Below are positions 26,309 through 59,810 of a stretch of DNA of 64,000 nt, piece by piece. The position numbers were made by a program, and so were the translations under genes. The stretch covers positions 2,783-66,782 of the forward strand of contig DYDA01000009.1 of NCBI GenBank assembly GCA_020718105.1, written 5' to 3'. The notes below the pieces were generated by a model. That model searched no databases, was not told where the DNA came from, and was given only the letters and a program-made list of their open reading frames with translations. Origin of the DNA: Micavibrio sp. (GTDB lineage: Bacteria; Pseudomonadota; Alphaproteobacteria; UBA9219). Position 1 is the first letter of the stretch, and each line of letters starts with the position of its first letter.

Positions 26309-26401
26309 TGGCGGAGACAGAGGGATTCGAACCCTCGATACAGGTATACCCCGTATAACGGTTTAGCAAACCGTCGCCTTCAGCCTCTCGGCCATGTCTC
26401 C
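26309..26401 (-). tRNA. tRNA-Ser(GCT)
   Basis: GGAGACATGGCCGAGAGGCTGAAGG..ACGGT-TTGCTAA-ACCGT, long variable arm, GGTTCGAATCC, 3' CCA. Confidence 0.96.
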
Positions 26402-46672: not shown

Positions 46673-46937
46673 AGCTACCCACCCCCACCGTATCGTCGAT
46701 CAAATTACGACTGCGACAGACAAGAAATACGAGCCTGTCGCGCGCATGGCCGATGCCATCATCGATACGAGATTGGAAAGCGGAGATTGCTTGCCGCAAG
46801 ACCTCCACGCCAAGGGCTTCACACATCAGGACATAACTGCACTTTGGCACTTCGCCAACGCGCTGGCCATCATCGAGCTTAAGTGCCGTACGAACGGCAT
46901 CGGTTCCTCTTATAAACGGGAGGTGCGCTATGCCTAA
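46665..46937 (+). CDS. Hypothetical protein
   Basis: GGAG RBS; overlaps both neighbours. Confidence 0.65.
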   Translation: MTKATHPHRIVDQITTATDKKYEPVARMADAIIDTRLESGDCLPQDLHAKGFTHQDITALWHFANALAIIELKCRTNGIGSSYKREVRYA

Positions 46938-47466
46938 AGTCAAATTGCAGTTGGCAGCCAAACCGCTGGCTGAAATGTTGCAGATTCAAGCGCAGAACGA
47001 AAGCGAACCTAAGCATGTCAAAATCGTCGTTTTTGATGATCAAAACCGCGTGCTGACGGTCAAAAGCAAGACCCGCTTCGTCCTGCCCGGTGGGCGTGTG
47101 GAATGGGATGACGACGATGACGAGGCTGCGGCGCGGCGCGAGGTTTTTGAAACGGCGAACATCACCCTCGGTCTGGTGACCCTCGTAACCCTCGTGAGAA
47201 TCAAAGATCACAACAAACAGATTACAAAAACGATGGTGTTCGTCGGGCGCATGTCTGGCAAGGAGCAAGCTGCGCCTAATCAAAAACAGAAGCATCAATT
47301 TGTAAGCAAGGAGGCGTTTTTAGTGGCGACAGGCTCTCGAAACGATCTTGTGCGCACATTAGTCGATGCTGCTTTCAAGGCTCTGGTCTCCGAGGAGATC
47401 AGGGAAGACCACGATCAGACGATCCTGAGCGGACGTGAAAAATACAACAGCCAATCCCTCTTATAA
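46930..47466 (+). CDS. Nudix-fold protein with degenerate Nudix box
   Basis: LPGGRVEWDDDDDEAAARREVFETANI. Confidence 0.75.
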   Translation: MPKVKLQLAAKPLAEMLQIQAQNESEPKHVKIVVFDDQNRVLTVKSKTRFVLPGGRVEWDDDDDEAAARREVFETANITLGLVTLVTLVRIKDHNKQITKTMVFVGRMSGKEQAAPNQKQKHQFVSKEAFLVATGSRNDLVRTLVDAAFKALVSEEIREDHDQTILSGREKYNSQSLL

Positions 47467-47478
47467 ATGGAGAATTTA

Positions 47479-48696
47479 ATGAGCAAGAACAATCAAGATA
47501 CAATGCAATCAAACGCCTCAAAAGTCGTTTATCTCAACTATGCAGCAACATCGTTTCCCAAAAACCCAGATGTTGTGAATGTCTACAACGAAGCGCTTGC
47601 GCTGCTTCCAGGCGGAAATCGTCAAGGCATCGGCAAAGGAGGCCTCGTCGACGAAGCGCGAGAAATGCTTGCAACAGGCCTTAATGTCGGTAAAGAAAAC
47701 ATCTACTTTTCTAGCGGATCGACGCAAGCTCTCAACGAAATCATTTTGGGTTCTGTAAATTCGGGCGACCATTGCCTTTTCGATAATCGCTCACACAACT
47801 CGGTTGTGCGCCCTATGCACGAGCTGCCTTCTTCCATCGATGCGGAAATGTGCCCGCTTTATCGAGAGGATGAAACCCTTGATCTTGACGCTCTGACATC
47901 GCGCCTTAACACGACTACAAAACTTGTCTGCTTGGTTCACGCCAGCAACGTGACGGGCACGGTCTATGACATAAAAACGGTTATTTCCGCCGTCAGAGAG
48001 AAAGCTCCCCAATCAGTTGTCTTAGTCGATGCCGCTCAATCAGCTGGCGCCATTGATCTGAAGGACGCGCTCAAAGCGGATTATGTGGTATTTCAAGGGC
48101 ACAAACACCTTCATGCCCCACATGGCGCGGCAGTCGTGGTGGCCAAGCGGCACGTTCGCCCCGTCATTTTTGGAGGCGGCCAAACTTTAACGGGTCAGGA
48201 AGGCGACCCGCATCTGCTCGAAGTCGGGACGCAGAACCACGCTGCCATTTACGCCACCGCCGTTGCTTTCGGCATCGCGTCGGACAATCTTCTTAAGCAC
48301 CAGACACACGAACGCGCCCTCTACACAAAGCTACGGTCGGCGCTTGACGGGGTTTATGGGCTAGAACCGCTGCCAGTCAACCCCAAGTTCGACCACGTCT
48401 CTATTATGGCCTTCCGCACTAAGATGGGCACGCCGGAAGGAGATTGGGTTCCGTTCTTGCAGTCGAAAAATATCATCGCTCGCGGTGGGCTGCATTGTTC
48501 CCCGTGCCTGCATGAACAGCTTGGTTTGACGCAGTACGGAACGCTGCGCCTTAGCCTCGGCTGGTACACAACAGACAAGGACGTCGAAGCAGCGGCGCAC
48601 GCCATTCATGAGTTTTCGGATCATCTGAAGACGCATGGTCCGGCACATCCTGTACAGACAAGTTGTTCGGTGTCGTTTCCCTCTAACCGAAAATAA
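47479..48696 (+). CDS. Class V PLP aminotransferase, cysteine desulfurase (SufS-like)
   Basis: YLNYAATSFPK, HNSV, DAAQSAG, GHK PLP lysine, RGGLHCSP catalytic Cys. Confidence 0.85.
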   Translation: MSKNNQDTMQSNASKVVYLNYAATSFPKNPDVVNVYNEALALLPGGNRQGIGKGGLVDEAREMLATGLNVGKENIYFSSGSTQALNEIILGSVNSGDHCLFDNRSHNSVVRPMHELPSSIDAEMCPLYREDETLDLDALTSRLNTTTKLVCLVHASNVTGTVYDIKTVISAVREKAPQSVVLVDAAQSAGAIDLKDALKADYVVFQGHKHLHAPHGAAVVVAKRHVRPVIFGGGQTLTGQEGDPHLLEVGTQNHAAIYATAVAFGIASDNLLKHQTHERALYTKLRSALDGVYGLEPLPVNPKFDHVSIMAFRTKMGTPEGDWVPFLQSKNIIARGGLHCSPCLHEQLGLTQYGTLRLSLGWYTTDKDVEAAAHAIHEFSDHLKTHGPAHPVQTSCSVSFPSNRK

Positions 48697-48733
48697 TTCA
48701 GTTTTAGGGCATATATTTTTTGAGGATTATTCT

Positions 48734-49849
48734 ATGAACGAACAATTTAAACCGGCTATCGCCACAATTATGAACCTTCTTGGGCAGTCAAATATTGAAC
48801 TGCCCAATGAAGGGGGCGCTTTGGAGACGTTCCTAGACCGTGCGCTAGAATATCTTGCGGCAAGCCATGCCATTGGCTCTGTTGCCGAGCAGAAAGCCTA
48901 TATTCTAAGCCGCCTCGTTCCGGCAGAAAAGGCATCAAAGGGAAAGTTCAGCTTTGTTCTTGAACACAACATCGATCCTCAAAAAGGATCGACCGTTCCC
49001 ACAATCCAAGTCAGCGGAACCAGCGGAAACTATCACGCACTTATCATCAAGAGGCAGGACACCCTGCTTAAGGGCTATAAGTGCCAGCAACAACTTAAAA
49101 TAGCTGGAAACCTCTGCCAAGTCGGATTTGCAACAAGCCGCATACGGGCGGATGTTGATTTGGCCAGAGAGTTCCCCACACTGGACAGCCTGAAGAAAGG
49201 CTGCCGTATGGAAGGGCGTCCCATCATCTACTTCCTTGGTGCGGCACGGCGCTTTCCCGATGGAGGGGAGCAAGCCTCCGCTATCAAAGGACAAGTCAAG
49301 GCCGTCAACGCCATTTTTGATACGTTGGAGAGTGCCTTTGGTAACAACGTTATCATTGGAACGGGCGGTTGGGCTGGGACAAAAGAAGGATCGTTGGGCA
49401 TTCCCCGCATTGGTTACCTGCATGCTGTTTCGACTAACCAATTGATTTTGACGACAATGCCGCGTGTTGGGGCTTATGACCGGCATGAAAACCCAACACT
49501 CGAAGTGTTCTGCGGACAGGAATGGGGCGATGACTCTGCCGTGCTGGCCGCAACCTGCGATGCTGCCTTTGTCTTCAGGCCACATGGGACGTGGACACAA
49601 ATCGAGGTCGAGAATTTGCTCGCACAGGACAAGCCCTTCGTCGTGATCGATGACCCTAAAAACAGTCAATTGAGGTCAGACGAAAATAAGAAGCGGATCA
49701 GCACCCAAGGGGGGGACTATTTTGTCTATCGCCACCCTAAGACGGCGGCCAATGATTTATTGCGGAAGCTCAGCGAAGCGGGTTTTATATACTCACGGCG
49801 ACCGTCTCGCCGCCCCGCCGCTTTGCTTGCCGAACCCGCGCACAAATGA
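48734..49849 (+). CDS. Protein with C-terminal SLOG/LOG-like nucleotide-processing domain
   Basis: IIYFLGA, IGTGGWAG, CDAAFVF..HGTWTQIE...DKPFVVI resemble the LOG TGG and GGxGTxxE motifs. Confidence 0.5.
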   Translation: MNEQFKPAIATIMNLLGQSNIELPNEGGALETFLDRALEYLAASHAIGSVAEQKAYILSRLVPAEKASKGKFSFVLEHNIDPQKGSTVPTIQVSGTSGNYHALIIKRQDTLLKGYKCQQQLKIAGNLCQVGFATSRIRADVDLAREFPTLDSLKKGCRMEGRPIIYFLGAARRFPDGGEQASAIKGQVKAVNAIFDTLESAFGNNVIIGTGGWAGTKEGSLGIPRIGYLHAVSTNQLILTTMPRVGAYDRHENPTLEVFCGQEWGDDSAVLAATCDAAFVFRPHGTWTQIEVENLLAQDKPFVVIDDPKNSQLRSDENKKRISTQGGDYFVYRHPKTAANDLLRKLSEAGFIYSRRPSRRPAALLAEPAHK

Positions 49850-50574
49850 AGAGAATCGAGAACACAATGCATACTGCTACCAACATATTTTTCGATCTGG
49901 ACGGAACATTGACTGATCCCAAGGAAGGGATCGTCAACAGCATCGTTTTTGCTTTGGAACAAGTCGGACATGCCATCCCAACGCAGAAAGACCTCAACAA
50001 TCTGATCGGGCCTCCTTTACGGGATTACTTTGAGCGGGAGCTGGACGAGGAAAAAGCCAAGACCGCGATGAAGAATTTTGTACAGCATTACGATTTTGAA
50101 GGAAAGTGCCTGACGGAAAACGCGCTTTATCCAGAAATACCGAGTGTGCTCAACTTGCTTCGTCAACACGGCAAGAGGTTGTTCGTAGTTACGGCGAAGC
50201 CAAAGACCATTGCTGAAAAAATCGTCCGCCACTTTGGATTGGATTCGTACTTTCTTTGTGTATATGGAGCCGAACAGGACGAAACGCGGAGTGATAAAGT
50301 GAAGCTAATCTCCTACGTTCTCGGTCGTGAGCAGATAGCCCCCCAATCCGCCGTTATGATCGGCGACCGCAAACATGACATTTTGGGAGCACTAGCAAAC
50401 GGTGTGGCCAGCATTGGCGCACTATGGGGCTATGGCGAGCCAGGCGAGTTGAAAGCGGCGGGGGCGCAACGGCTGGCCAAGACGCCGCAAGATATCGTGA
50501 GATTTCTGTTGGAACCCGCTGTCCGATCTGTGGGACACGGATGCAGAATTTCCAAACCTTCTACAATGTGTTGA
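49846..50574 (+). CDS. HAD-family phosphatase (5'-nucleotidase/phosphoglycolate phosphatase-like)
   Basis: FDLDGTLTD, IGPPL, MIGDRKHD, WGYG. Confidence 0.92.
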   Translation: MKRIENTMHTATNIFFDLDGTLTDPKEGIVNSIVFALEQVGHAIPTQKDLNNLIGPPLRDYFERELDEEKAKTAMKNFVQHYDFEGKCLTENALYPEIPSVLNLLRQHGKRLFVVTAKPKTIAEKIVRHFGLDSYFLCVYGAEQDETRSDKVKLISYVLGREQIAPQSAVMIGDRKHDILGALANGVASIGALWGYGEPGELKAAGAQRLAKTPQDIVRFLLEPAVRSVGHGCRISKPSTMC

Positions 50575-50584
50575 GGCAGCAATA

Positions 50585-51898
50585 ATGACTGAAACATTTA
50601 GTTTTGATCTTGAGAAAGTTAGAACGAGAAACGCTCTCATTCACGCCAACTCCATCTTTTCAGGTCGGGGCGTGCGTCCAGATGCGCATCAGTCCGTTAC
50701 GAACATTAGACCGTTCGTCCGCGCCGTTGCCGCAGGCTCGCATCCGCAAATTTCTGTCGGCGAGAAAAAAAGTATCGTTCTTATTGGCCTCGACTCGATC
50801 AAACACAGTTTCGCGGAGAAAGTTTTCAAGCCAGATCACTTGGTTTGCATGACAAGCGTTTTTCCTTCGACGTCGATTCGTGTGTGGCCAACGGCCCTGA
50901 CGGGATATAGCCCCGAGACGTTTGGTTCCGTTGGCCCCGTTTTCTATGCCAAGGAAATCGACGCGCTGTACAATGCGCTGGATGACTCCTATCGGGTTCA
51001 AGAGTCGTTTGTTGTCGATCCCAAAGTAACCGACCAGCACCCCATAGGTAGCAAGGACAATCTTTTCAGTGACCTAAATGTTCTTGGTTTCCAAACCGTC
51101 TGCATCAACGGGTTCTATGCTCATAAAAAGAGTCGCTGGTCTCAGGCCATGCAAGAGAATGCCGGACGCTATGTGACGTCAAAGTACGATTGGCGCAATA
51201 TCACGATGCAACCCGACCTAATTGTCGCTTCCATTCGGGAAGACGTTTCTGAAGCCTTGACATCAATGAACAAAGGGCAAAATGCGCTTGTCTGGACGCT
51301 ATCAGATATCGATTGTTACGTGCATGAACATGGATATTCAGACAATTTAAAAACAGCGCTAGACGAATTAGACGGGTTTTTCCGCGAATTGGCTAATAAT
51401 GGCCACCTTGTAATCGCCTTTGCGGATCATGGGCAGGTTCCTCAAGTCGTCAGTACCTTTACCGAAGGCTGGGACAATATCCACAGCGATGAGAATTGCC
51501 GTAGGCCATCCGGCGGAGCTGGAAGAGTCCGGTGGAGTTATCCGCGTCCGGGGCACGAACAAGCCCTTAAAGAGCAAATCGAAGGTCTTTTGGGCGATAC
51601 CGCCGCCGTCATATGGCGCGCCGATCTTGAGAAGCTCGGCATCCTTTCATTAGGAGAAAATCTTAAGAGCCAGATTGGAGAGATTGTGGTTCTCGGTCTG
51701 ACCGAGGACTTTCCGTTGGCCCTGCACGGTGACGGCTTCATATATGAACACGGATCCGTAAGCAGAGACGAGATGCTCGTCCCCCTGATGATTTACAAGG
51801 CTGCCGCGAAAGAGGCGTCCGCCCATACACTTACTGTGCCATCGAGAGAAGACGCTTTGGCTCACCCCGCAACCTTCAACCCGAAACTGGGAGGATAA
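50585..51898 (+). CDS. Alkaline phosphatase superfamily nucleotide pyrophosphatase/phosphodiesterase
   Basis: [36 protein letters not shown] metal ligands. Confidence 0.82.
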
Positions 51899-51900
51899 AA

Positions 51901-53358
51901 ATGTCCGACAAATCTAAAAGTGAGAAAAACATGAAAAATCAGATGAAATTCTTCAATACATTGACGCGCGAGGCGCAGCCTCTTGCCCCGATTAATGCGA
52001 ACGAGATAGGGTTGTACACATGCGGCCCAACTGTTTACAGCTACGCCCATATCGGCAACCTGCGCACATATATTTTCGAGGATATCTTGCGCCGCGTTCT
52101 TGAAAAATCTGGCTATAGCGTCAAGCATGTGATGAACATCACCGATGTTGGCCATCTGCAATCCGATGCTGATGAAGGCGAAGACAAGATGGAAGTGGCG
52201 GCCCGGCGCGAAAAGAAGTCACCTTGGGAAATCGCTAAGTTTTTCGAATCCACCTTTTTCAGCGATTGCGCGGATTTGAATGTCCAGCGCCCACATGTCG
52301 TTTGCCGCGCTACAGAGCATATTCCGGAAATGATCGAATTCGTGAAAGCTCTTGAGGAAAAAGGCATCGCTTATGCCGTCGACGGCAACGTCTATTACGA
52401 TACGTCCAAGTTTTCTAGCTACGCTGATTTTGCACGGCTTGATTTCTCTCAAATGCAAGAATTTGGGCGCGTCGAGCAGGATTCGCGCAAACGCAATCCC
52501 CAAGACTTTGTGCTCTGGTTCTCTCAATCGAAATATCCGAACCAGATCATGAAATGGGATTCTCCTTGGGGCGTCGGTTTTCCGGGATGGCATATCGAAT
52601 GCTCGGCGATGGCCTCAAAATATCTTGGCGAGCAATTCGACATTCATTGCGGCGGCATCGACCACATTCCCGTTCACCACACGAACGAAATCGCGCAAAG
52701 CGAAGGCCGTTTCGGACACCGGTGGGTCAATCATTGGATGCATGGCGAGTTTCTCGTCTTGGACAAAGGAAAAATGTCGAAGTCCAAAGGAGGTACGCTG
52801 ACGGTCGCTACCTTGAAAGAACTTGGCTATGACCCGATGCACTTCCGCTATCTCTGCTTGAATGCACATTACCGAAGCCAGCTTAAGTTCAGCTACGACT
52901 CCTTGGATGGTGCGCGCAACGCCTATGAAACGCTCCAGCACAAGCAGGCGGATTGGGCGGCAGAACCAGAATCGCCCCTGTCGGCTCAAGACAAAAAGTT
53001 GGTCGCCGATTACGAAGGGCAATTTTGGAGCGCGATGACCGATGACCTCAATGCGCCCCTAGCGTTGTCCGCGCTTTGGACGGGACTTCGTGACGACCGG
53101 ATGTCAACGACGGCGAAACAAGCTCTTTTTGGGACGGTGAATGAGGTTCTCGGCATCACAAAGCCGGAAGAAGAAATGAAGTTGGCTCCTGAATTGGAAC
53201 AGCTCATCAAAGATCGAGAAGCGGCACGTGGCCAGAAGGATTGGAAGCGAGCCGATGAGCTTAGAGGCAAGCTGGAAGATCAAGGCATTCTTATAAAGGA
53301 TAGACCCAATGGAACGGATTGGTTCGTAAAAAAAAACAAAACTAGCCTGACACCCTAG
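51901..53358 (+). CDS. cysS: Cysteine--tRNA ligase
   Basis: [49 protein letters not shown]. Confidence 0.96.
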
Positions 53359-53411
53359 TTCTACAAGACAAAAAAGACTGATTTTACAACAACTTATTTT
53401 GGGAGGCTAAA

Positions 53412-54455
53412 ATGAGCACAGGGGAAATTTATGCCCTGACGGCAAAAGAGGCAACGGCACCGGCCATCGATCCTTGGAACAATGTAGTTCAAGAAGATTT
53501 AGCGCCGTTCATTCAATTCCACGGATTGCAGACCACTGATGAAATTCAGGGGCTCCTCGACAACGAGAAGCTGAGGCCGCTTGCTAAATCTGCGGTCTCC
53601 GGCATTGGCATTACAGACGATGTCATTGGTTTCCTTCAAAACAAGCCGTCTTCCGTGGTTGCTATTTCTGGTTTCGATACGGCAGGAGATCTGCACTTTG
53701 GCAATCTTCTTGTCCTCAAGCAGCTCATGATCCTTGGACAGAAAGGATGCCAAGTCAGGATTCCGCTTGCCGATCTTGAGGCCATTGCCGCGCGCGGTGA
53801 AGACAGCAAAACCTCTGAGGATCGCGCGAATTCGACCATGATTCCCAATCTTGTTCAGTTGGGATTTAAATCCGAAAGTGTTTACATCCGATCCACAGTT
53901 CCACGAATTCTGGACATGATGGCGGTCGTTTCTCGTGGCACAGCTCCTGATAAGATGGAAAAACTCTATGGCCGCGCACTTTCTGGGCCGGAGATTTTTT
54001 CACTGACTTTTATGGCAGCTGACCTGCTTCGGCCTCAAACAGAAGGCATCAAACACACGATTGCCGTTTATGGCATCGATGAAGCACCCCACATCCGGGC
54101 GATTAATCAGATTGCTATTGATGTAGGCCTGAAGCCCATTGCCGGTCTTTTTAGTCCCCTTGTGCCGAGCAAGCAAAACTCGTCAATCAAGATGAGCAAA
54201 AGCCTTCAGAAACGTGGTGCAAACCTGTCACTGACGGCGGCTGTCGAGGACGCACGCGATACGGTCATTCAGTACGAAGTACAAGACCCTTGCATGGTGA
54301 AAGCCTTGCGGAAGCATTTTTTGATTGGGTCTGTTCTGAGGGATGATGCCGTCGAGTGCGACCTCGAATGCGCCGCCTGCAAAAGAGAGTCCGGAGCTGC
54401 AATTTTCGGCTTTATGGCGAACAAAAACCTTATTCAGAAACTCGCAAATTTATAA
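53412..54455 (+). CDS. Divergent class Ic (archaeal-type TrpRS-like) aminoacyl-tRNA synthetase paralog
   Basis: IDPW, SGFDTAGDLHFGN, ADLEAIAARG, AADLLRPQ, GIDEAPH, KMSKS, C-x21-C-x3-C-x2-C. Confidence 0.8.
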   Translation: MSTGEIYALTAKEATAPAIDPWNNVVQEDLAPFIQFHGLQTTDEIQGLLDNEKLRPLAKSAVSGIGITDDVIGFLQNKPSSVVAISGFDTAGDLHFGNLLVLKQLMILGQKGCQVRIPLADLEAIAARGEDSKTSEDRANSTMIPNLVQLGFKSESVYIRSTVPRILDMMAVVSRGTAPDKMEKLYGRALSGPEIFSLTFMAADLLRPQTEGIKHTIAVYGIDEAPHIRAINQIAIDVGLKPIAGLFSPLVPSKQNSSIKMSKSLQKRGANLSLTAAVEDARDTVIQYEVQDPCMVKALRKHFLIGSVLRDDAVECDLECAACKRESGAAIFGFMANKNLIQKLANL

Positions 54456-54473
54456 ACCAAAGGAGATTTTCAA

Positions 54474-55481
54474 ATGGATAAGACAGAAAAAGCACTTAAA
54501 GTGATTGCGCCTTATATCGTCAAGACGCCTTTGCTCAAATCTAAGGATTTAAGCAAAAAACTCGGCTGCGAACTCTACTTCAAATATGAGCACCTGCAGG
54601 TGGCGGGATCCGTGAAGGCTAGAGGTTCTTTCCTGAAAGTTTTTTCCGCCGAACGGACAAATCCAAAGGGTTATGTGACAGCATCAAGCGGCAACCACGG
54701 TCTGAGCATTGCAATGGCTTCTCAGCAGGCTGGCGTAAAGCTGAAACTGTTCATGCCCGAAACAACACCTGAATCGAAAATTCAGAAAGTCAAAGCCTTG
54801 GGCGTCGACTTGGGCATAACCGGAACCTCATGGGACGATGCGAACGACGCCGCCTTCGCCTACGGAAAAGAGACCGGAGCCGAATTTATCCATGCCTTTG
54901 CCGATCCGACCATCATCTTGGGACACTCGACGGCTGCGCTGGAGTGTCTTCAGGATATGCCCTCGGTTGATATCGCTATTTGTTCCATCGGCGGTGGCGG
55001 CATTGCACACGGATTTTTGGGCTATCTAAAAAGAAAGCTCCCCAATCTGCGTTGCTATGGCGTCGAAACCTATGGCGCAGAGTCCATGCTGACGAGTTTT
55101 CAGCACAATCGCGTTATGACGATTCCTGAAATCACATCGAAGGCATCCGCCATCGGCGTGCGCGCGCCCGTGGACGAGACGTTCAGTTTTGCGAAAAAGA
55201 ACTTGAATGGCCTTGTCGCTGTCAGCGATTACGCTGCTGCGGTCGCCCAGACGACGATCCTGAATTACGACAAACAGCTCGTCGAGCTTGCGGCATCCTG
55301 CTGCGTGGCCGCCCTGCAAGCCGAGAAGATACCCAACATTCAAGGAAAGAAGGTGCTGGTGCTCTTGTGCGGCGGCAACACCACCATGTCTGAGCTTGGC
55401 CTTGAAGCTACAGCCCAGCCGAAGCCGCCAACATTTCTGGCAAACGACAAAAGAGCTGTTGTGTCCTGCTGTCAATTATAA
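54474..55481 (+). CDS. PLP fold-II serine/threonine dehydratase-like enzyme
   Basis: FKYEHLQVAGSVKARG, ASSGNHG, IGGGG, LCGGN. Confidence 0.88.
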   Translation: MDKTEKALKVIAPYIVKTPLLKSKDLSKKLGCELYFKYEHLQVAGSVKARGSFLKVFSAERTNPKGYVTASSGNHGLSIAMASQQAGVKLKLFMPETTPESKIQKVKALGVDLGITGTSWDDANDAAFAYGKETGAEFIHAFADPTIILGHSTAALECLQDMPSVDIAICSIGGGGIAHGFLGYLKRKLPNLRCYGVETYGAESMLTSFQHNRVMTIPEITSKASAIGVRAPVDETFSFAKKNLNGLVAVSDYAAAVAQTTILNYDKQLVELAASCCVAALQAEKIPNIQGKKVLVLLCGGNTTMSELGLEATAQPKPPTFLANDKRAVVSCCQL

Positions 55482-55493
55482 TTGGGGAACAAA

Positions 55494-56339
55494 ATGAAAG
55501 ATAAACAAAAAATTATTTTTACGATCATGGGATGCGGTTCGGCTTATGGCGTGCCGACGGCAGGAAACGGATGGGGTATCTGCGATCCCAATCATCCGGC
55601 GAACAGGAGACTGGCCTCGTCCGTTGTTCTGCGTTCGGAAACCGACACGATCATCATCGATCTTGGGCCTGACTTCCGCCAGCAGACATGCACGCACAAT
55701 GTACGAGAGATATCCGGCGTTTTGTTTACGCATTCCCACGCTGACCACATCACCGGGATATTTGAGCTGCCAATGTTTACGCAATGGCAAAGGGGTGACA
55801 TCCATTGTTTTGCGACACCTGAAACCTTGGTGGGCATCCAAAAAAGATTTCATTACCTGTTTGATCCGAACATCACGGTCTATCACTACGGCGGCGGAAG
55901 AATTCTTTGGCATGAAATCGAATATGGCCAAGAAATGGTCGTTGGCGACATGCCAATCCTTCCTTTTCAACAAGATCATGGCTTTATGTCCAGCACAGGG
56001 TTTCGCGTCGGCGACATAGCCTATTCGACGGACGTGAAAAAGATCGACGAAGCCAACAAAGCCTTTCTCAAAGATCTGAAAATATGGGTGCTCGATTGCA
56101 ACGGCATAGAGGTCAGCCCTGTCCACAATCACCTCGATCAGGCTCTCGCGTGGATTGAGGAGATAAAGCCTGAACGCGCCATCCTGACGCATCTCAGCGA
56201 GACCGTAGACTACGTTACAACAAGCAAGAAACTGCCGCCAAATGTCGAACTGGCAGTCGACGGCATGTCCTTTGAAACCTTTGTCCAAAGACCGACATGC
56301 CGTCGTCCTTTGCGTCAATATTCACCCAGCAACATATAG
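55494..56339 (+). CDS. PhnP-like metallo-beta-lactamase phosphodiesterase
   Basis: GCGSAYGVP, DLGPDFRQQ, THSHADH, YSTD, LTHLS. Confidence 0.9.
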   Translation: MKDKQKIIFTIMGCGSAYGVPTAGNGWGICDPNHPANRRLASSVVLRSETDTIIIDLGPDFRQQTCTHNVREISGVLFTHSHADHITGIFELPMFTQWQRGDIHCFATPETLVGIQKRFHYLFDPNITVYHYGGGRILWHEIEYGQEMVVGDMPILPFQQDHGFMSSTGFRVGDIAYSTDVKKIDEANKAFLKDLKIWVLDCNGIEVSPVHNHLDQALAWIEEIKPERAILTHLSETVDYVTTSKKLPPNVELAVDGMSFETFVQRPTCRRPLRQYSPSNI

Positions 56340-56349
56340 GAGAAGAGAT

Positions 56350-57381
56350 ATGAACGACGAAAACGGAAACTTCATTTACAAAGCTCGCCCTTCGCTTCAG
56401 GCGGGCACAAAAATTGGCATCGTGTCACCCGGAAGCTGGGACGATTCGCCCAATTATGGGTTTCTCGATGCGCTTAGGGCGTTTTGGGAAAAGAAGGGTT
56501 TTGATGTCTGCATCCATCCGCAGAATTACTACAAGGACGGCGTGCTTGCTGGTTCCGACGCGGCCAGAGCCAAAGCGTTTATGGACATGGTCAAGAATCC
56601 CGAAATTGGCGCAATCATGTTTGCGCGCGGATGTACGGGTTCCATCCATATTCTCGACATGCTCGATTATGATGCCATTAAGGCCAATCCAAAACCTATC
56701 ATTGGTTCTTCCGATACAACGACGCTGCTTCACGCGATAACAAAGAAAAGCGGCGTTGTGACATTCTATGGACCTATGGGCTGTCACTTCGCCGATCCGG
56801 CGAATGACCAGCGCACCTGCGATGACCTAATCACGGCGATCAATGCCGGAAATGAAGAGTACGAAATGACGTATCCTGAAGTCAGTTGTTTGCGTGAGGG
56901 AAAAGCCGAAGGATGGCTTGTTGGCGGGCACATGAACCGCATGCAGCTTCTCATGGGGACGCCGTATGACTGCCTTCCTCAAAGATCGCTGGTCGATGGC
57001 GTCGTTCTGTTTATTGAGACTGTGGACACAACCCGGCTTGAAATCGACAACATTTTAAGCCAGTTCCGTTTGGCCGGAAAGTTGCAGACCGTGCGGGGGC
57101 TTATTGTCGGGGAAATGCTGGGCGTACAAGATGGGGAGACCAGCTTGGCGCGAAAGGGAGAACGAACTTATGGCCGTGATGTTCAAGGCATTATCGCCAA
57201 GGCCATGAAAGAAATATCGCCCCGCGTTCCGGTCGTTTGGAACTTTCCCTGTGGGCACGGTTCGTATCTCTCGACGATGCCCATCGGGAGCCACGTTAGC
57301 CTCGCTACGAGCAAGCAAGATGGAACACGGCTCTCTTTCCGGCCTGTGCCGAAAAGTGCGCCGATTATGTGTTATCTGTAA
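56350..57381 (+). CDS. S66 peptidase (MccF / LD-carboxypeptidase family)
   Basis: IGIVSPGS, LAGSDAARA, GSSDTT (Ser), LFIET (Glu), PCGH (His). Confidence 0.88.
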   Translation: MNDENGNFIYKARPSLQAGTKIGIVSPGSWDDSPNYGFLDALRAFWEKKGFDVCIHPQNYYKDGVLAGSDAARAKAFMDMVKNPEIGAIMFARGCTGSIHILDMLDYDAIKANPKPIIGSSDTTTLLHAITKKSGVVTFYGPMGCHFADPANDQRTCDDLITAINAGNEEYEMTYPEVSCLREGKAEGWLVGGHMNRMQLLMGTPYDCLPQRSLVDGVVLFIETVDTTRLEIDNILSQFRLAGKLQTVRGLIVGEMLGVQDGETSLARKGERTYGRDVQGIIAKAMKEISPRVPVVWNFPCGHGSYLSTMPIGSHVSLATSKQDGTRLSFRPVPKSAPIMCYL

Positions 57382-58324
57382 ATAGCTCGGTGGAAAGGTA
57401 ACGCTCGGCACTGTCTGGCAAAAGCGTGACGATGGTCTTTCCGGCCATTTCGGGGCGCTTGGCAAGCTGGATCGCTGCCGCCACCGCTGCTCCGGATGAT
57501 ATACCAGCAAGGATGCCTTCCTTGCGCGCCAGATCCCGCGCGTGAGACAAGGCATCCTCGTTGGTGATATTCAAAATTTCATTAATTCCGCTGACGTTCA
57601 AAATGTCAGGGACAAAATTGGCCCCGATACCTTGGATCTTGTGAACGCCGGGTTTTCCACCTGTCAGGACGGGGCTGTTGGCAGGTTGAGCTGCGACTAT
57701 CCTGATATCGGGTTTGTGCTTGCGCAAGCCTTCAGACACGCCTTGCACAGTTCCTCCCGTTCCGACACCGGCCACAAAGACATCGACTTGCCCGTTTGTG
57801 TCCGCCCAAATTTCTTCTGCTGTGGTGCGCGTGTGAATGGCGGGATTGGCTGGATTGGAAAATTGACGCGGCATAATCGCATTCAGGCGCGTTTTGACGA
57901 CCTCTTCAGCCTTGCGGAGCGCGCCCGCCATGCCTTCTTCTGCGGGCGTCAGGATAATTTCAGCGCCCAAGAAGGACAGAAGCTTGCGTCGCTCAATAGA
58001 CATATTGTCCGGCATGGTCAAGACAAGACCATAACCCTTCACGGCGGCGATAAACGCAAGACCGATGCCTGTATTTCCAGATGTCGCTTCAACAAGAACG
58101 CCACCGGAAACCAGCGTGCCGTCCCGTTCGGCAGCTTCGATCATGCCCAATGCGGTCCTGTCTTTAACCGATGAAAGCGGGTTGAAGTATTCCAGTTTCG
58201 CCAGAACGGTGGCAACGCTTCCAGCCTCTTGAGGCATCCTGTTTAAGCGGACAAGCGGTGTTCCGCCAATGGTCTCAATGATATTTTGATAAGTGATACC
58301 GCGTGCGGGTGATAGATTCGACAT
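57365..58324 (-). CDS. cysK: Cysteine synthase A
   Basis: KLEYFNPLSSVKDR, ATSGNTG, GVGTGGT, HKIQGIGA, ERYLST. Confidence 0.96.
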   Translation of the reverse strand: MSNLSPARGITYQNIIETIGGTPLVRLNRMPQEAGSVATVLAKLEYFNPLSSVKDRTALGMIEAAERDGTLVSGGVLVEATSGNTGIGLAFIAAVKGYGLVLTMPDNMSIERRKLLSFLGAEIILTPAEEGMAGALRKAEEVVKTRLNAIMPRQFSNPANPAIHTRTTAEEIWADTNGQVDVFVAGVGTGGTVQGVSEGLRKHKPDIRIVAAQPANSPVLTGGKPGVHKIQGIGANFVPDILNVSGINEILNITNEDALSHARDLARKEGILAGISSGAAVAAAIQLAKRPEMAGKTIVTLLPDSAERYLSTELFTDNT

Positions 58325-58340
58325 GGATTTTCTCCTCGTT

Positions 58341-59201
58341 TCAATGATTTTCGGGAATAACGGCTTGATCCATTTCGTCTGCCGGTCGTGCACTTCTTGG
58401 CGCACCGACGATTTTTGCGGGGATGCCAGCAACCGTAGTGTGGGGAGGTACGTCCCGAAGCACTACGCTTCCTGCAGCTATGCATGCTCCGGCACCTATT
58501 TCGACATTGCCAAGGATCGACGCGCCCGCACCGATCATAACGCCCGAGCGCACTTTGGGGTGACGGTCGCCTTGCTCCTTGCCCGTTCCACCGAGCGTGA
58601 CATTGTGAAGGATGGAAACGTGATCTTCAACAATTGCCGTTTCTCCGATGACGAGGCCCGTCGCATGGTCAAGCATAATGCCGCTGCCAATCTTTGCGGC
58701 GGGGTGAATGTCTACGTCGTACAAAAGAGAACTGCGGTTCTGAAGGAGCAACGCATCGTCTGTTTCTCCATTCAGCCAAAGCACATGAGCCAGACGATGA
58801 ATCTGAAGGGCATGGAAGCCCTTAAAATACAGAAACGGCGTCAAAGCGTCCGTGACGGCGGGATCTCGTGCGACAACGGCCTCCAAGTCGCGGGAGGCCG
58901 CCAAAACAAGATCGGGGTGTCTTTCATAAAGACCAGACAGCCTTTTTTCCAAGACGCTCGGCGCAAGCAGCGCGTCCGTTTGTTGGTGCGAAAGTGTTCG
59001 GCTTAGGCTTTGGGGTAGACTCTCACTGTCCAAAATGATCGTCTGGATCAGGGTTGCCGATAAAGAGCCGTGTCGAAGCCTGTTTTCGGCAGCTAGGCGA
59101 AGTTTGAGCCAAAGCCCCTCTAAAGGCGAGGAACCTGCCTTTAGCAAAAAAGAGGCGGATTGTTTTGATGAGCTGAGCGCTCGTAAAGCGAAAATGTTCA
59201 T
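58341..59201 (-). CDS. cysE: Serine O-acetyltransferase
   Basis: RDPA, FKGFHALQ, DIHPAAKIG, DHATG, TLGGTGKE.GDRHPK. Confidence 0.95.
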   Translation of the reverse strand: MNIFALRALSSSKQSASFLLKAGSSPLEGLWLKLRLAAENRLRHGSLSATLIQTIILDSESLPQSLSRTLSHQQTDALLAPSVLEKRLSGLYERHPDLVLAASRDLEAVVARDPAVTDALTPFLYFKGFHALQIHRLAHVLWLNGETDDALLLQNRSSLLYDVDIHPAAKIGSGIMLDHATGLVIGETAIVEDHVSILHNVTLGGTGKEQGDRHPKVRSGVMIGAGASILGNVEIGAGACIAAGSVVLRDVPPHTTVAGIPAKIVGAPRSARPADEMDQAVIPENH

Positions 59202-59288
59202 TTGAGGTCTCTGTGGTTCGCCTGAAAATCAGGCTTGTTGTTCCTTGTGGCGCAAGCGCCTCTAACCTCGCGGCAACCGCGAGAAAAA

Positions 59289-59318
59289 TTAGTTACAAGG
59301 ACAACAACAGAGAAACAT
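59289..59318 (-). CDS. Cys-rich leader peptide MFLCCCPCN (putative attenuator of cysE-cysK)
   Basis: ATG TTT CTC TGT TGT TGT CCT TGT AAC TAA; GGAG 10 nt upstream; complementary to cysE start region. Confidence 0.8.
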   Translation of the reverse strand: MFLCCCPCN

Positions 59319-59349
59319 GAACCTACGGCTCCATATAGTTAACGAGGTC

Positions 59350-59378
59350 ATTTTACTTATTTTCAGCAATGAAGTCAA
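59350..59378 (-). promoter_or_regulatory. Sigma70 promoter for leader-cysE-cysK
   Basis: TTGACT-17 nt-TAAAAT. Confidence 0.75.
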
Positions 59379-59416
59379 CCAAATGCGTTCTACACTGGTT
59401 GCAAGGCAAGAAGATT

Positions 59417-59650
59417 TCATCGGCACGGAAGCAACAGCTTGCGAAAAACACTATAATCTATAAGCACTTCAGTAAACGCAGCATCTTTCGGAGCATTTTC
59501 GACCTCAGCAGCCAGCTTGTCCTGAAACTCGCGGCTATATTCCTTGATCGGTGGGCAAACGCAGGCGGGGTTAGAACTTGCCGTTTCGCAGGCGCTTAAC
59601 GAGATCAGCACGAGTGCGAGGAGCATCCATCGTTGCACGGAGTTGAGCAT
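59417..59650 (-). CDS. Phage o-spanin (Rz1-like) lipoprotein
   Basis: LSAC lipobox, CVCPP; overlaps the upstream TM gene in another frame. Confidence 0.65.
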   Translation of the reverse strand: MLNSVQRWMLLALVLISLSACETASSNPACVCPPIKEYSREFQDKLAAEVENAPKDAAFTEVLIDYSVFRKLLLPCR

Positions 59651-59810
59651 CTTTGATCTCCACGATTTTCTTGAGTTGGTCATAGCGTTCTGCGGTGCGG
59701 CCTGATTGCTTCGCGCCGAGAAGCACAGCGGCCACAGATGCGGCAATCGCGCCCCAGCCGATGATTTTTATGAGGTTGCTGGAAAACCAGCCCGTTATAA
59801 TCGTCCACAT
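59571..59810 (-). CDS. Phage i-spanin (Rz-like)
   Basis: N-terminal TM plus coiled coil; directly follows endolysin. Confidence 0.6.
   Translation of the reverse strand: MWTIITGWFSSNLIKIIGWGAIAASVAAVLLGAKQSGRTAERYDQLKKIVEIKDAQLRATMDAPRTRADLVKRLRNGKF

Follow-up and report, generated by a model that had tools for sequence, protein, structure and literature searches.

On the minus strand of a 64,000-nt stretch of contig DYDA01000009.1 (positions 2,783 to 66,782; the whole stretch is hereafter called the window) from the Micavibrio sp. assembly GCA_020718105.1, we found a leader upstream of the cysteine genes cysE and cysK that contains a nine-codon short open reading frame (sORF), MFLCCCPCN. 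The RNA of this sORF is predicted to pair with the Shine-Dalgarno (SD) region and the start codon of cysE. We interpret the element, with a probability of about 0.72, as a ribosome-mediated, cysteine-sensing translational attenuator of the cysE-cysK operon. A first-pass annotation of the sequence had already proposed that a Cys-codon leader occludes the cysE start and that ribosome stalling relieves the occlusion. This proposal found support in the conservation of the leader, in pairing between the sORF and the cysE ribosome-binding site (RBS; 15 of 16 folds), in helix covariation, in a conserved promoter (16 of 18 leaders) and in a simulated stall that exposes the RBS (15 of 18 leaders).

Anatomy and predicted fold of the leader

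All coordinates of the element are given in window numbering and refer to the minus strand. The following features make up the locus:

59378-59373 and 59355-59350, minus strand: predicted sigma-70-type promoter from a consensus scan, TTGACT and TAAAAT with a 17-nt spacer
59332-59329, minus strand: GGAG, SD-like sequence for the sORF, 10 nt ahead of the ATG at 59318
59318-59289, minus strand: leader sORF MFLCCCPCN and stop, ATG TTT CTC TGT TGT TGT CCT TGT AAC TAA
59196..59214, minus strand: cysE translation-initiation region, ACAGAGA (59214-59208) and AUGAAC (59201-59196, start)
58341..59201, minus strand: cysE, serine O-acetyltransferase, 286 aa, with SATase_N and Hexapep domains (TIGR01172, 227 bits, cutoff 210.65)
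57365..58432, minus strand: cysK, cysteine synthase A, ORF as listed (TIGR01139, 426.6 bits, cutoff 350.95)

The promoter (10 of 12 consensus matches) was the sole promoter-like site in the 801 nt between 58900 and 59700, where the shuffle mean was 0.4, and its -10 box ends 31 nt ahead of the sORF AUG. The GGAG is part of a GGAGCC shared by six leaders (the window and relatives G023, G059, G050, G044 and G045; throughout, G denotes genomes, L loci and C contigs). All Cys codons of the sORF are TGT, with three consecutive ones at 59309-59301 and one more at 59297-59295, and 87 nt lie between the sORF stop and the cysE ATG (59201). The promoter, the GGAG and a nine-codon ORF with four UGU codons had all been named in the first-pass annotation and are present where it placed them; its assignment of the downstream genes as cysE and cysK likewise holds, both profile scores lying above their cutoffs. 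The real start of cysK is probably just past the cysE stop, because the profile match begins at residue 48-52 of the listed ORF.

A terminator scan returned no minus-strand terminator-like site between the sORF (59289) and cysE (59201), in agreement with the earlier remark that no U-tailed terminator follows the leader. Neither the hairpin at 59262-59292 nor that at 59220-59234 has a U run behind it, and the leader therefore carries no intrinsic terminator of the kind found in classical leader-peptide transcription attenuators, including the alphaproteobacterial uORFC-8-2. Because no terminator is present, translational attenuation is the best reading of the element. Rfam gave no gathering-score match to the leader in the window and nothing meaningful at E <= 10 in 58900-59700; the 16 other leader loci described below were without a match at E <= 0.1 except for a tRNA.

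RNAfold of the 166-nt leader yielded a minimum free energy (MFE) of -58.4 kcal/mol, compared with -40.0 +/- 4.0 for shuffled sequences (z -4.60; 0 of 200 shuffles as good). The fold comprises the following segments:

59295..59322, minus strand: 5' strands of the closing helices in the MFE structures, GUUCAU (59322-59317) and UCUCUGUUGUUGUCCUUGU (59313-59295)
59262..59292, minus strand: inner hairpin CUCGCGG-UUG-CCGCGAG, extended by an AACUAA/UUAG stem
59249..59260, minus strand: inner hairpin GGCG-CUUG-CGCC, helix 6 of the covariance alignment
59235..59248, minus strand: 3' partner of the Cys-codon tract, ACAAGGAACAACAA; an ACAACA-type partner recurs in relatives
59220..59234, minus strand: hairpin GCCUGA-UUU-UCAGGC, just 5' of the cysE RBS region

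Three sORF segments pair with downstream RNA. GUUCAU (59322-59317) overlaps the sORF AUG by its A and U and is matched to AUGAAC (59201-59196) in a start-to-start helix; UCUCUGU (sORF codons 2-4) pairs with ACAGAGA (59214-59208); and the UGU tract pairs with ACAAGGAACAACAA (59248-59235) with one bulge. Together with the three inner hairpins, these helices form a multi-branch junction. The nested pairing described in the first-pass annotation is thus present in the MFE structure, and the check that it had proposed, RNAfold with the leader masked, bears it out: with the whole sORF masked, the MFE of the window leader changed from -53.4 to -28.0 and the number of paired RBS positions from 10/17 to 4/17.

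Distribution and covariation among relatives

The window belongs to a 1.9 Mb assembly of 42 contigs (G000) from an uncultured alphaproteobacterium, whose named relatives are metagenome-assembled genomes (MAGs) labelled Alphaproteobacteria or Pseudomonadota bacterium. Window DNA was found in groundwater and aquifer sequencing runs. A DNA search with the leader reached only 3 of 41 relatives. G023, of a different genus, matched at 89% identity, and in G005 a 26-nt stretch that is exactly the sORF was 100% identical, the remaining leader having diverged. With 3 mismatches allowed, a pattern search matched just as often as its reversed control and was of no use. CysE itself gave matches in 45 of the 71 genomes of the order (47 places), and upstream DNA was read for 44 loci, 16 of which, across several genera, carry a short Cys-run ORF just upstream of cysE. 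These 16 loci, including the window, were joined by L082 (among the 80 best CysE loci of GTDB species) and L160 (among the 80 best metagenome loci) in a set of 18 leaders. Besides MFLCCCPCN of the window, the leader peptides are:

G023: MLLCCCPCN
G005: MFLCCCPCC
G048: MSLCCCPCC
G059: MSLCCCPRC
G044: MTLCCCCPSL
G060: MSLCCCR
G070: MSFCCCCLCR
G004: M(M)QLCCCRCC
G003: MSYIALKASCCCCPCC
G061: MKTVFLCC
G050: MFFRCC
G043: MFLCRC (seen by eye, beyond the formal count)
G006: MKALNRKINRLAAACC
G000, second cysE, contig C11: MKALNRKITCPAAACC
G045 (L039): ...LRCCPCC, without ATG (seen by eye, beyond the formal count)
L082 (GTDB MAG): MSLCCCL
L160 (metagenome contig): MFLCCCPCK

The peptides are 6-16 aa long and vary in their non-Cys residues, with an in-frame Cys run (2-6 codons) and a close stop always kept and an upstream in-frame ATG in 17 of the 18. 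A Pro codon follows the Cys run in 9/18 leaders; the motif C-C-C-P-C occurs in five (window, G023, G048, G005 and L160), with close variants in G059, G045, G044 and G003. Cys codons of the 18 leaders are overwhelmingly TGT (61, against 6 TGC), despite a TGC preference of about 2:1 in the long ORFs of G000 (3078 TGC, 1539 TGT). This bias, and the pairing of the UGUUGU tract with an ACAACA segment, argue that nucleotides are selected too, not only the peptide; UGU, which is wobble-read, may also be the slower codon.

A promoter-like site of the form TTGACN-17/18-[TC]AnnnT was present upstream of the sORF in all leaders except L160, which is cut off, and G005, which has a poorer -10 box. The distance from the predicted -10 end to the AUG is 25-33 nt in 13 leaders and only 7-8 nt in 3/18, namely those of G061 (L040), G006 (L049) and the second cysE of G000 (L064; 7 nt), whose sORFs are predicted to be nearly leaderless. 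The leader of this second cysE lies at L064:703-831 (plus strand), with its G006 counterpart at L049:1352-1482; in it a U-rich stretch immediately 5' of the cysE SD is paired with the central part of the sORF. A single genome, G000, carries two unrelated Cys-sORF leaders on its two cysE genes. In the G045 leader (L039) the GGAGCC, Cys run, stop and pairing are present, and no ATG, GTG or TTG lies 3' of the predicted promoter; a non-canonical start, decay or an assembly error may account for this.

Enrichment of such sORFs upstream of cysE homologues, a search that the first-pass annotation had suggested, was marked: an ATG sORF of 3-20 codons with Cys-Cys lies within 250 nt upstream of cysE at 14/32 family loci, compared with 2/791 control windows from the same loci. 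Within G000, 75 of 23306 short ATG ORFs contain at least 3 Cys including Cys-Cys, and two of them precede its two cysE genes (they take up three of the 75 rows, since two in-frame ATGs each give an entry for the window sORF). The remaining G000 sORFs with CCC (on C10, C31, C6, C5 and C36) overlap longer ORFs or are without a downstream gene and were rejected.

Beyond these genomes the arrangement was rare. Among the 80 best GTDB CysE loci only G023, G004 and L082 show it, and it was not found there outside the family. A Cys filter flagged 19 of these 80 loci, of which three were kept (L080, L082 and L085); the flagged locus L091 (Chelatococcus), with MARLCC at -281, is outside these three. Similarly, 7 of 80 metagenome CysE loci were flagged and two kept (L160 and L163). 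L161 and L234 are unlikely as leaders, and the 'Cys-Cys' calls at L162, L164 and L200 are false, being produced by an operator-like inverted repeat. The three contigs, from soil or bog, share this repeat (TGTATAAAT-CT-ATTTATACA, with minor differences) some 150-190 nt ahead of cysE, and it looks like an operator for a DNA-binding regulator. ORFs of 15-40 codons with scattered Cys, mostly starting with TTG or GTG, were dropped as chance at L056, L057, L058, L061, L062, L065, L066, L071, L073, L076 and L077. At L076 and L077 (family f2) a shared TTG-start ORF, ..CCCVL[QR]FHASANTTPM..., lies about 360-450 nt ahead of a hexapeptide transferase that is not CysE; this ORF probably belongs to a conserved gene read in a different frame.

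A class-wide search of 401 genomes for M-x-[LF]-C-C-C with TGT codons gave 24 matches (9 in the control), and none of the 22 from genomes other than G000 had a cysE, cysK or cysS homologue within 1.5 kb. A looser pattern within the order gave 32 matches (10 in the control), nine of them known cysE leaders. Two sORFs of the order precede other genes. MLMCCC in G034 (family f3; L264:1501-1521) lies 86 nt before the gene (from 1587) of a 464-aa PALP+CBS enzyme, cystathionine-beta-synthase-like, and its leader has an ACAACA partner and a fold z of -2.8; among the relatives of G034, G040 (L294) has MTMMCC, G038 (L293) has MTSMRC and G026 has none. MSFCCCLA in G066 (L280:1501-1527) precedes a 273-aa Peptidase_C26/GATase gene (from 1629). 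Its leader (fold z -4.2) has a window-like design, including start-to-start pairing: the UGU tract pairs with ACGACAAC, and the sORF start and codons 2-4 pair with a segment ahead of the AUG of the gene. It may be a further member of a Cys-sensing set, and Cys sORFs appear to have been put to use more than once in the lineage.

Pairing between the sORF and the cysE start was conserved along with the leader. The RBS window of cysE (-14 to +3) pairs with the sORF in all MFE folds but one of the 16. In an AUG-anchored table of 10 leaders, sORF positions +3 to +10 (codons 2-4) pair with cysE -4 to -17 and start pairs with start. Partners change together at sORF +4 (U:A/C:G), +5 (U:A/C:G) and +8 (C:G/U:A/G:C). 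For example, in L160 the synonymous codons UUC CUU preserve Met-Phe-Leu, and the partner strand has changed accordingly (ACAAAGGAA). An alignment-free test on 15 non-redundant leaders gave the same picture, the duplexes between each sORF and its own RBS having a mean of -16.95 kcal/mol and cross-species duplexes one of -13.30; 0 of 20000 permutations reached the own mean.

We also built a covariance model (R1) from the window and G023 with the window structure. With default filters it found only 4 leaders; with filters off and E <= 10 it returned 24 rows including false matches. Nine rows were kept at E <= 1.9, all of them already identified leaders, and the true site in L048 (7.2 bits) fell under the cut. 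In this 9-leader alignment 94.2% of cells were paired and 27/47 pairs had changed on both sides, a result that 0 of 500 shuffles reached; sliding the partners by 1-3 columns left 3-8 such pairs and 33-52% pairing. Changes on both sides were seen in 4/6 pairs of helix 1 (start-to-start), 5/7 pairs of helix 2 (codons 2-4 with the SD region) and 6/6 pairs of helix 7 (hairpin 59220-59234), and in helix 3 (Cys tract with the ACAAGGAACAACAA partner) 97.4% of cells were paired. Helices 4 and 5 (hairpin 59262-59292) occur in only 3-4 of the 9 aligned leaders and are a variable feature.

Proposed mechanism and rival explanations

In the proposed mechanism, a sigma-70-type promoter would start the mRNA about 20-25 nt upstream of the nine-codon sORF MFLCCCPCN. 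When Cys-tRNA(Cys) is ample, a ribosome would complete the sORF fast and depart, and the freed sORF RNA (start region, codons 2-4 and UGU tract) would zip with its three downstream segments into a closed multi-branch junction that buries the SD region and AUG of cysE. When charged tRNA(Cys) is scarce, the ribosome would stall on the UGU codons and cover the 5' strands, leaving the 3' strands single-stranded, and 30S subunits could then initiate on cysE. Since both start codons pair together, the junction would also bury the sORF's own AUG; with this AUG in helix 1, the decision is probably co-transcriptional, made before the 3' strands, 75-120 nt downstream, exist. When a ribosome stalled with the first Cys codon at its A site was simulated by masking, positions -13 to +3 of cysE were more often unpaired, their mean unpaired probability rising from 0.36 to 0.58 and, in the window, from 0.39 to 0.75.

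One aquifer RNA library (X2) is weakly consistent with transcription of the leader. Its contigs, which give no start, strand or level and whose uncovered parts carry no meaning, cover 58753-59244 and 59221-59389 without difference, so that leader and sORF are both represented.

Several observations weigh against the proposed mechanism. The evidence is computational, and the organism an uncultured MAG. The GGAG lies a long 10 nt from the sORF AUG, cysE of the window has only a weak SD (AGAGA), the sORF AUG sits inside helix 1 and the G045 leader has no ATG. The X2 contig that reaches 59389 extends about 10 nt beyond the predicted -35 box, which could be read-through from an upstream ORF (59417-59746), library DNA, or a wrong promoter call or other start. 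The simulated stall failed to open the RBS in 3/18 leaders, the fold of G050 (L038) does not pair sORF with RBS, and in two of the 15 leaders compared (L048 and L055) the sORF forms a less stable duplex with its own RBS than the cross-species mean. A MAFFT alignment of 13 leaders analysed with RNAalifold recovered only the UGUUGU:ACAACA helix (6 pairs, one compensatory, energy -0.5). The 9-leader covariance alignment, from which the strong pair counts stem, was fitted to the model and so favours the structure. Finally, 18/32 family cysE loci are without such an ATG sORF, and kinship of the relatives means that binomial p-values overstate independence, though the effect is large.

In the window, the opposite strand of the leader also folds nearly as well (-54.3, z -3.96). 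The strand is consequently assigned from genes, promoter, sORF and relatives taken together, and, because a nine-codon ORF is cheap as well, it is the relatives and not the window alone that decide against chance; the sense strand is the more stable in 16/18 leaders. Regarding covariation, the MAFFT alignment cannot handle register shifts, which is why the duplex test, the AUG-anchored table and the covariance-model alignment were used. The slid controls and the alignment-free duplex test argue that the covariation signal is real.

Among other explanations, the one that survives best keeps the same Cys-codon stall sensor and places its main output in transcription or mRNA stability, through Rho-dependent termination, or cleavage by an RNase, within the leader or the first part of cysE when that gene goes untranslated. 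Without translation, cysE would be exposed to polarity; the leader lacks an intrinsic terminator, and Rho-dependent termination has been proposed for terminator-less actinobacterial Cys leaders (PMC1262725). Nevertheless, the co-varying helices specifically bury the SD region and AUG of cysE, which is needed for occlusion and not for Rho, and a highly structured leader disfavours Rho loading. We consider such an output unlikely as the principal one; it could add to occlusion instead of replacing it.

It is less probable still that the sORF is a constitutive upstream ORF (uORF) in a structured 5' untranslated region (UTR) that sets a low basal level of cysE translation or couples it to general translational capacity, its Cys codons being a by-product of U/G-rich pairing. 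The excess of TGT over TGC despite the genomic preference does point to constraint at the nucleotide level. On the other hand, pairing alone would allow any frame, whereas every UGU run shares its frame with a close stop and, in 17/18, with an upstream ATG, the runs hold 2-6 codons and TGC does occur; moreover, these sORFs specifically precede cysteine-related genes (cysE, with two leader types, and the PALP+CBS enzyme).

Could the junction instead bind a ligand or a protein, as a riboswitch-like sensor of a sulfur metabolite or a regulator site, with the sORF untranslated? Several riboswitches work through RBS sequestration, and a multi-helix junction with conserved hairpins, among them helix 7 with all its pairs co-varying, would suit such a role. 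However, neither the window nor the 16 other leader loci gave an Rfam match to a riboswitch, the inner hairpins vary in number and sequence around no conserved unpaired aptamer-like core, and what is conserved is a start codon, a frame, Cys codons and a stop, which makes this explanation very improbable. That the sORF product is a Cys-rich micropeptide with a function of its own (metal- or redox-active, for instance), co-transcribed with cysE and with incidental pairing, we regard as the least credible option despite the recurrence of C-C-C-P-C in 5 leaders and close variants in 4, for the lengths range over 6-16 aa with only the Cys run in common, the RBS pairing co-varies and the peptides have no signal or partner genes.

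Known systems and genomic context

Leader peptides of the classical proteobacterial trp, his and leu attenuators are rich in codons for the end-product amino acid, and pairing depends on ribosome position. The window leader shares the tandem codons of the regulating amino acid (three Cys and one more). Those attenuators end in an intrinsic terminator and antiterminator, whereas in the window no terminator is present and the RBS is occluded. In ermC and cat the arrest signal is a drug together with a specific nascent peptide, whereas the presumed signal for the cysE-cysK attenuator would be a shortage of charged tRNA(Cys) at repeated codons.

The nearest published system is that of Mycobacterium smegmatis. 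There, ribosomes that stall within the poly-Cys stretch of Ms5788A, a leaderless sORF, prevent an SD-sequestering structure from forming, as seen with disruptive and compensatory mutants, and six loci respond to cysteine limitation (Ms5788A and the 'Cys ribulon'; Canestrari 2020, 10.1101/834739). Like Ms5788A, the window sORF is very short, has at least 2 consecutive Cys codons, is co-oriented with and upstream of a gene of cysteine metabolism and pairs with the downstream SD and start (here by computation, from the folds and the covariation), with no terminator needed; several loci per lineage are again involved, and the freeing of the RBS by a stalled ribosome, shown in M. smegmatis, would be shared as well. 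In contrast to Ms5788A, the element is found in Pseudomonadota (Alphaproteobacteria) and not in Actinobacteria, and its target is cysE-cysK. Shared ancestry of the two is not apparent, though no test aimed at it was made. Nor is the window sORF predicted to be leaderless, since the -10 box is 31 nt off the AUG and a 5' UTR with GGAG lies between, whereas in 3/18 related leaders the distance is only 7-8 nt. The pairing scheme also differs: in the window the Cys tract is matched to a segment of the spacer, the SD region and AUG are engaged by codons 2-4 and the sORF start, and the whole forms a multi-helix junction with start-codon-to-start-codon pairing.

A second comparison is uORFC-8-2 of Rhodobacterales, in which a Cys-Cys uORF and a terminator precede cysS (Brewer 2021, PMC8632094). 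It resembles the window leader in being alphaproteobacterial, in having tandem Cys codons inside a stem and in the proposed sensing of Cys-tRNA by stalling. It differs in its place upstream of cysS (the window gene is cysE, in a MAG of a different order), in having two Cys codons at positions 14-15, in the dominance of UGC where UGU dominates here, and in ending in a U run typical of an intrinsic terminator, and thus of transcription attenuation, of which the window leader has none (PMC8632094). Terminator-less Cys leaders were predicted in Actinobacteria in 2005 (Seliverstov, PMC1262725), with Cys runs near the stop, upstream of cys and cbs operons; the available part of that report gives no conserved hairpins and suggests Rho, whereas here co-varying helices occlude the RBS. 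The leaders of ermC and cat are alike in principle, a ribosome arrested in a short leader ORF remodelling hairpins that hide a downstream SD (10.1101/834739).

In the literature searched, we found no published Cys-codon leader before cysE in Proteobacteria; further cases of the kind may be listed in Table S2 of Canestrari or among the supplementary motifs of PMC8632094, and the words cysteine, cysE, cysK and Cys codons are absent from PMC13285730. What appears to be new is a Cys-sensing attenuator that is SD-led, proteobacterial, placed on cysE-cysK and without an Rfam family, the kind of mechanism being already known.

G000 has two copies of cysE (that of the window and that on C11, 55% identical), one cysK and two cysteinyl-tRNA synthetase (CysRS) genes. 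The window cysK is the only CysK homologue in the assembly (tblastn, E <= 1e-8). Two further features lie next to the operon:

46930-57381, plus strand: co-directional gene cluster encoding NUDIX, class-V aminotransferase, an unknown 404-aa protein, HAD, phosphodiesterase, CysRS, a TrpRS/TyrRS-like protein, a PALP enzyme, an MBL hydrolase and an S66 LD-carboxypeptidase
51901-53358, plus strand: full-length CysRS within this cluster

With only 36-40% identity to the single CysRS of G005, G006, G023 and G048 and to the other copy of G000 (on C32), the window CysRS is an extra divergent paralogue. The S66 LD-carboxypeptidase we take to be of the MccF family, and the cluster could be a pathway with aminoacyl-tRNA synthetase-like ligases or self-resistance genes. 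It was not found by DNA in G005, G023, G048 or G059. The cysK-cysE-leader module is 91% identical in G023, where no second CysRS was found. The first-pass annotation had added that the leader would respond to CysRS inhibition by the product of the neighbouring cluster. A response to CysRS inhibition is a logical corollary of the proposed mechanism, since any fall in tRNA(Cys) charging would trigger such a sensor; a link to an inhibitor made by the neighbouring cluster is speculation.

The window flanks at 44.0-47.5 kb and 59.5-62.0 kb match contig C1 of G005 at 72-86% and lie about 26 kb apart there, which suggests that the cluster and the cysK-cysE-leader module sit in a variable island. The window CysE is closer to that of other genera (G023, 89%; G048, 65%) than to that of its own genus (53-55%), and this hints at transfer of the module between genera. 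Elsewhere in the window, the only Rfam match was a tRNA of 90 nt (26312-26401, minus strand; RF00005, 60.1 bits), whose length suggests a long variable arm.

As a tentative extension, for which we would give clearly less than even odds, this order of small-genome, uncultured groundwater Alphaproteobacteria may have independently evolved a 'Cys ribulon' of its own, in which SD-led or nearly leaderless sORFs occlude the starts of cysE (two types), PALP+CBS and Peptidase_C26 genes, and in which the only cysK operon of G000 would also be induced by CysRS inhibition, including by a possible product of the adjacent cluster. Amino-acid-sensing translational attenuation has so far been demonstrated essentially for the poly-Cys leaderless sORFs of mycobacteria, and the leaders described here argue that the mechanism is convergent and more general, not a quirk of leaderless translation. 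They offer a concrete candidate for the control of cysteine synthesis in bacteria so far represented by MAGs alone, and a compact natural sensor of tRNA(Cys) charging. They would also mean that ORFs of 6-16 codons, missed by annotation, carry regulatory function, and Cys-rich mini-ORFs ahead of cys genes deserve a wider search.

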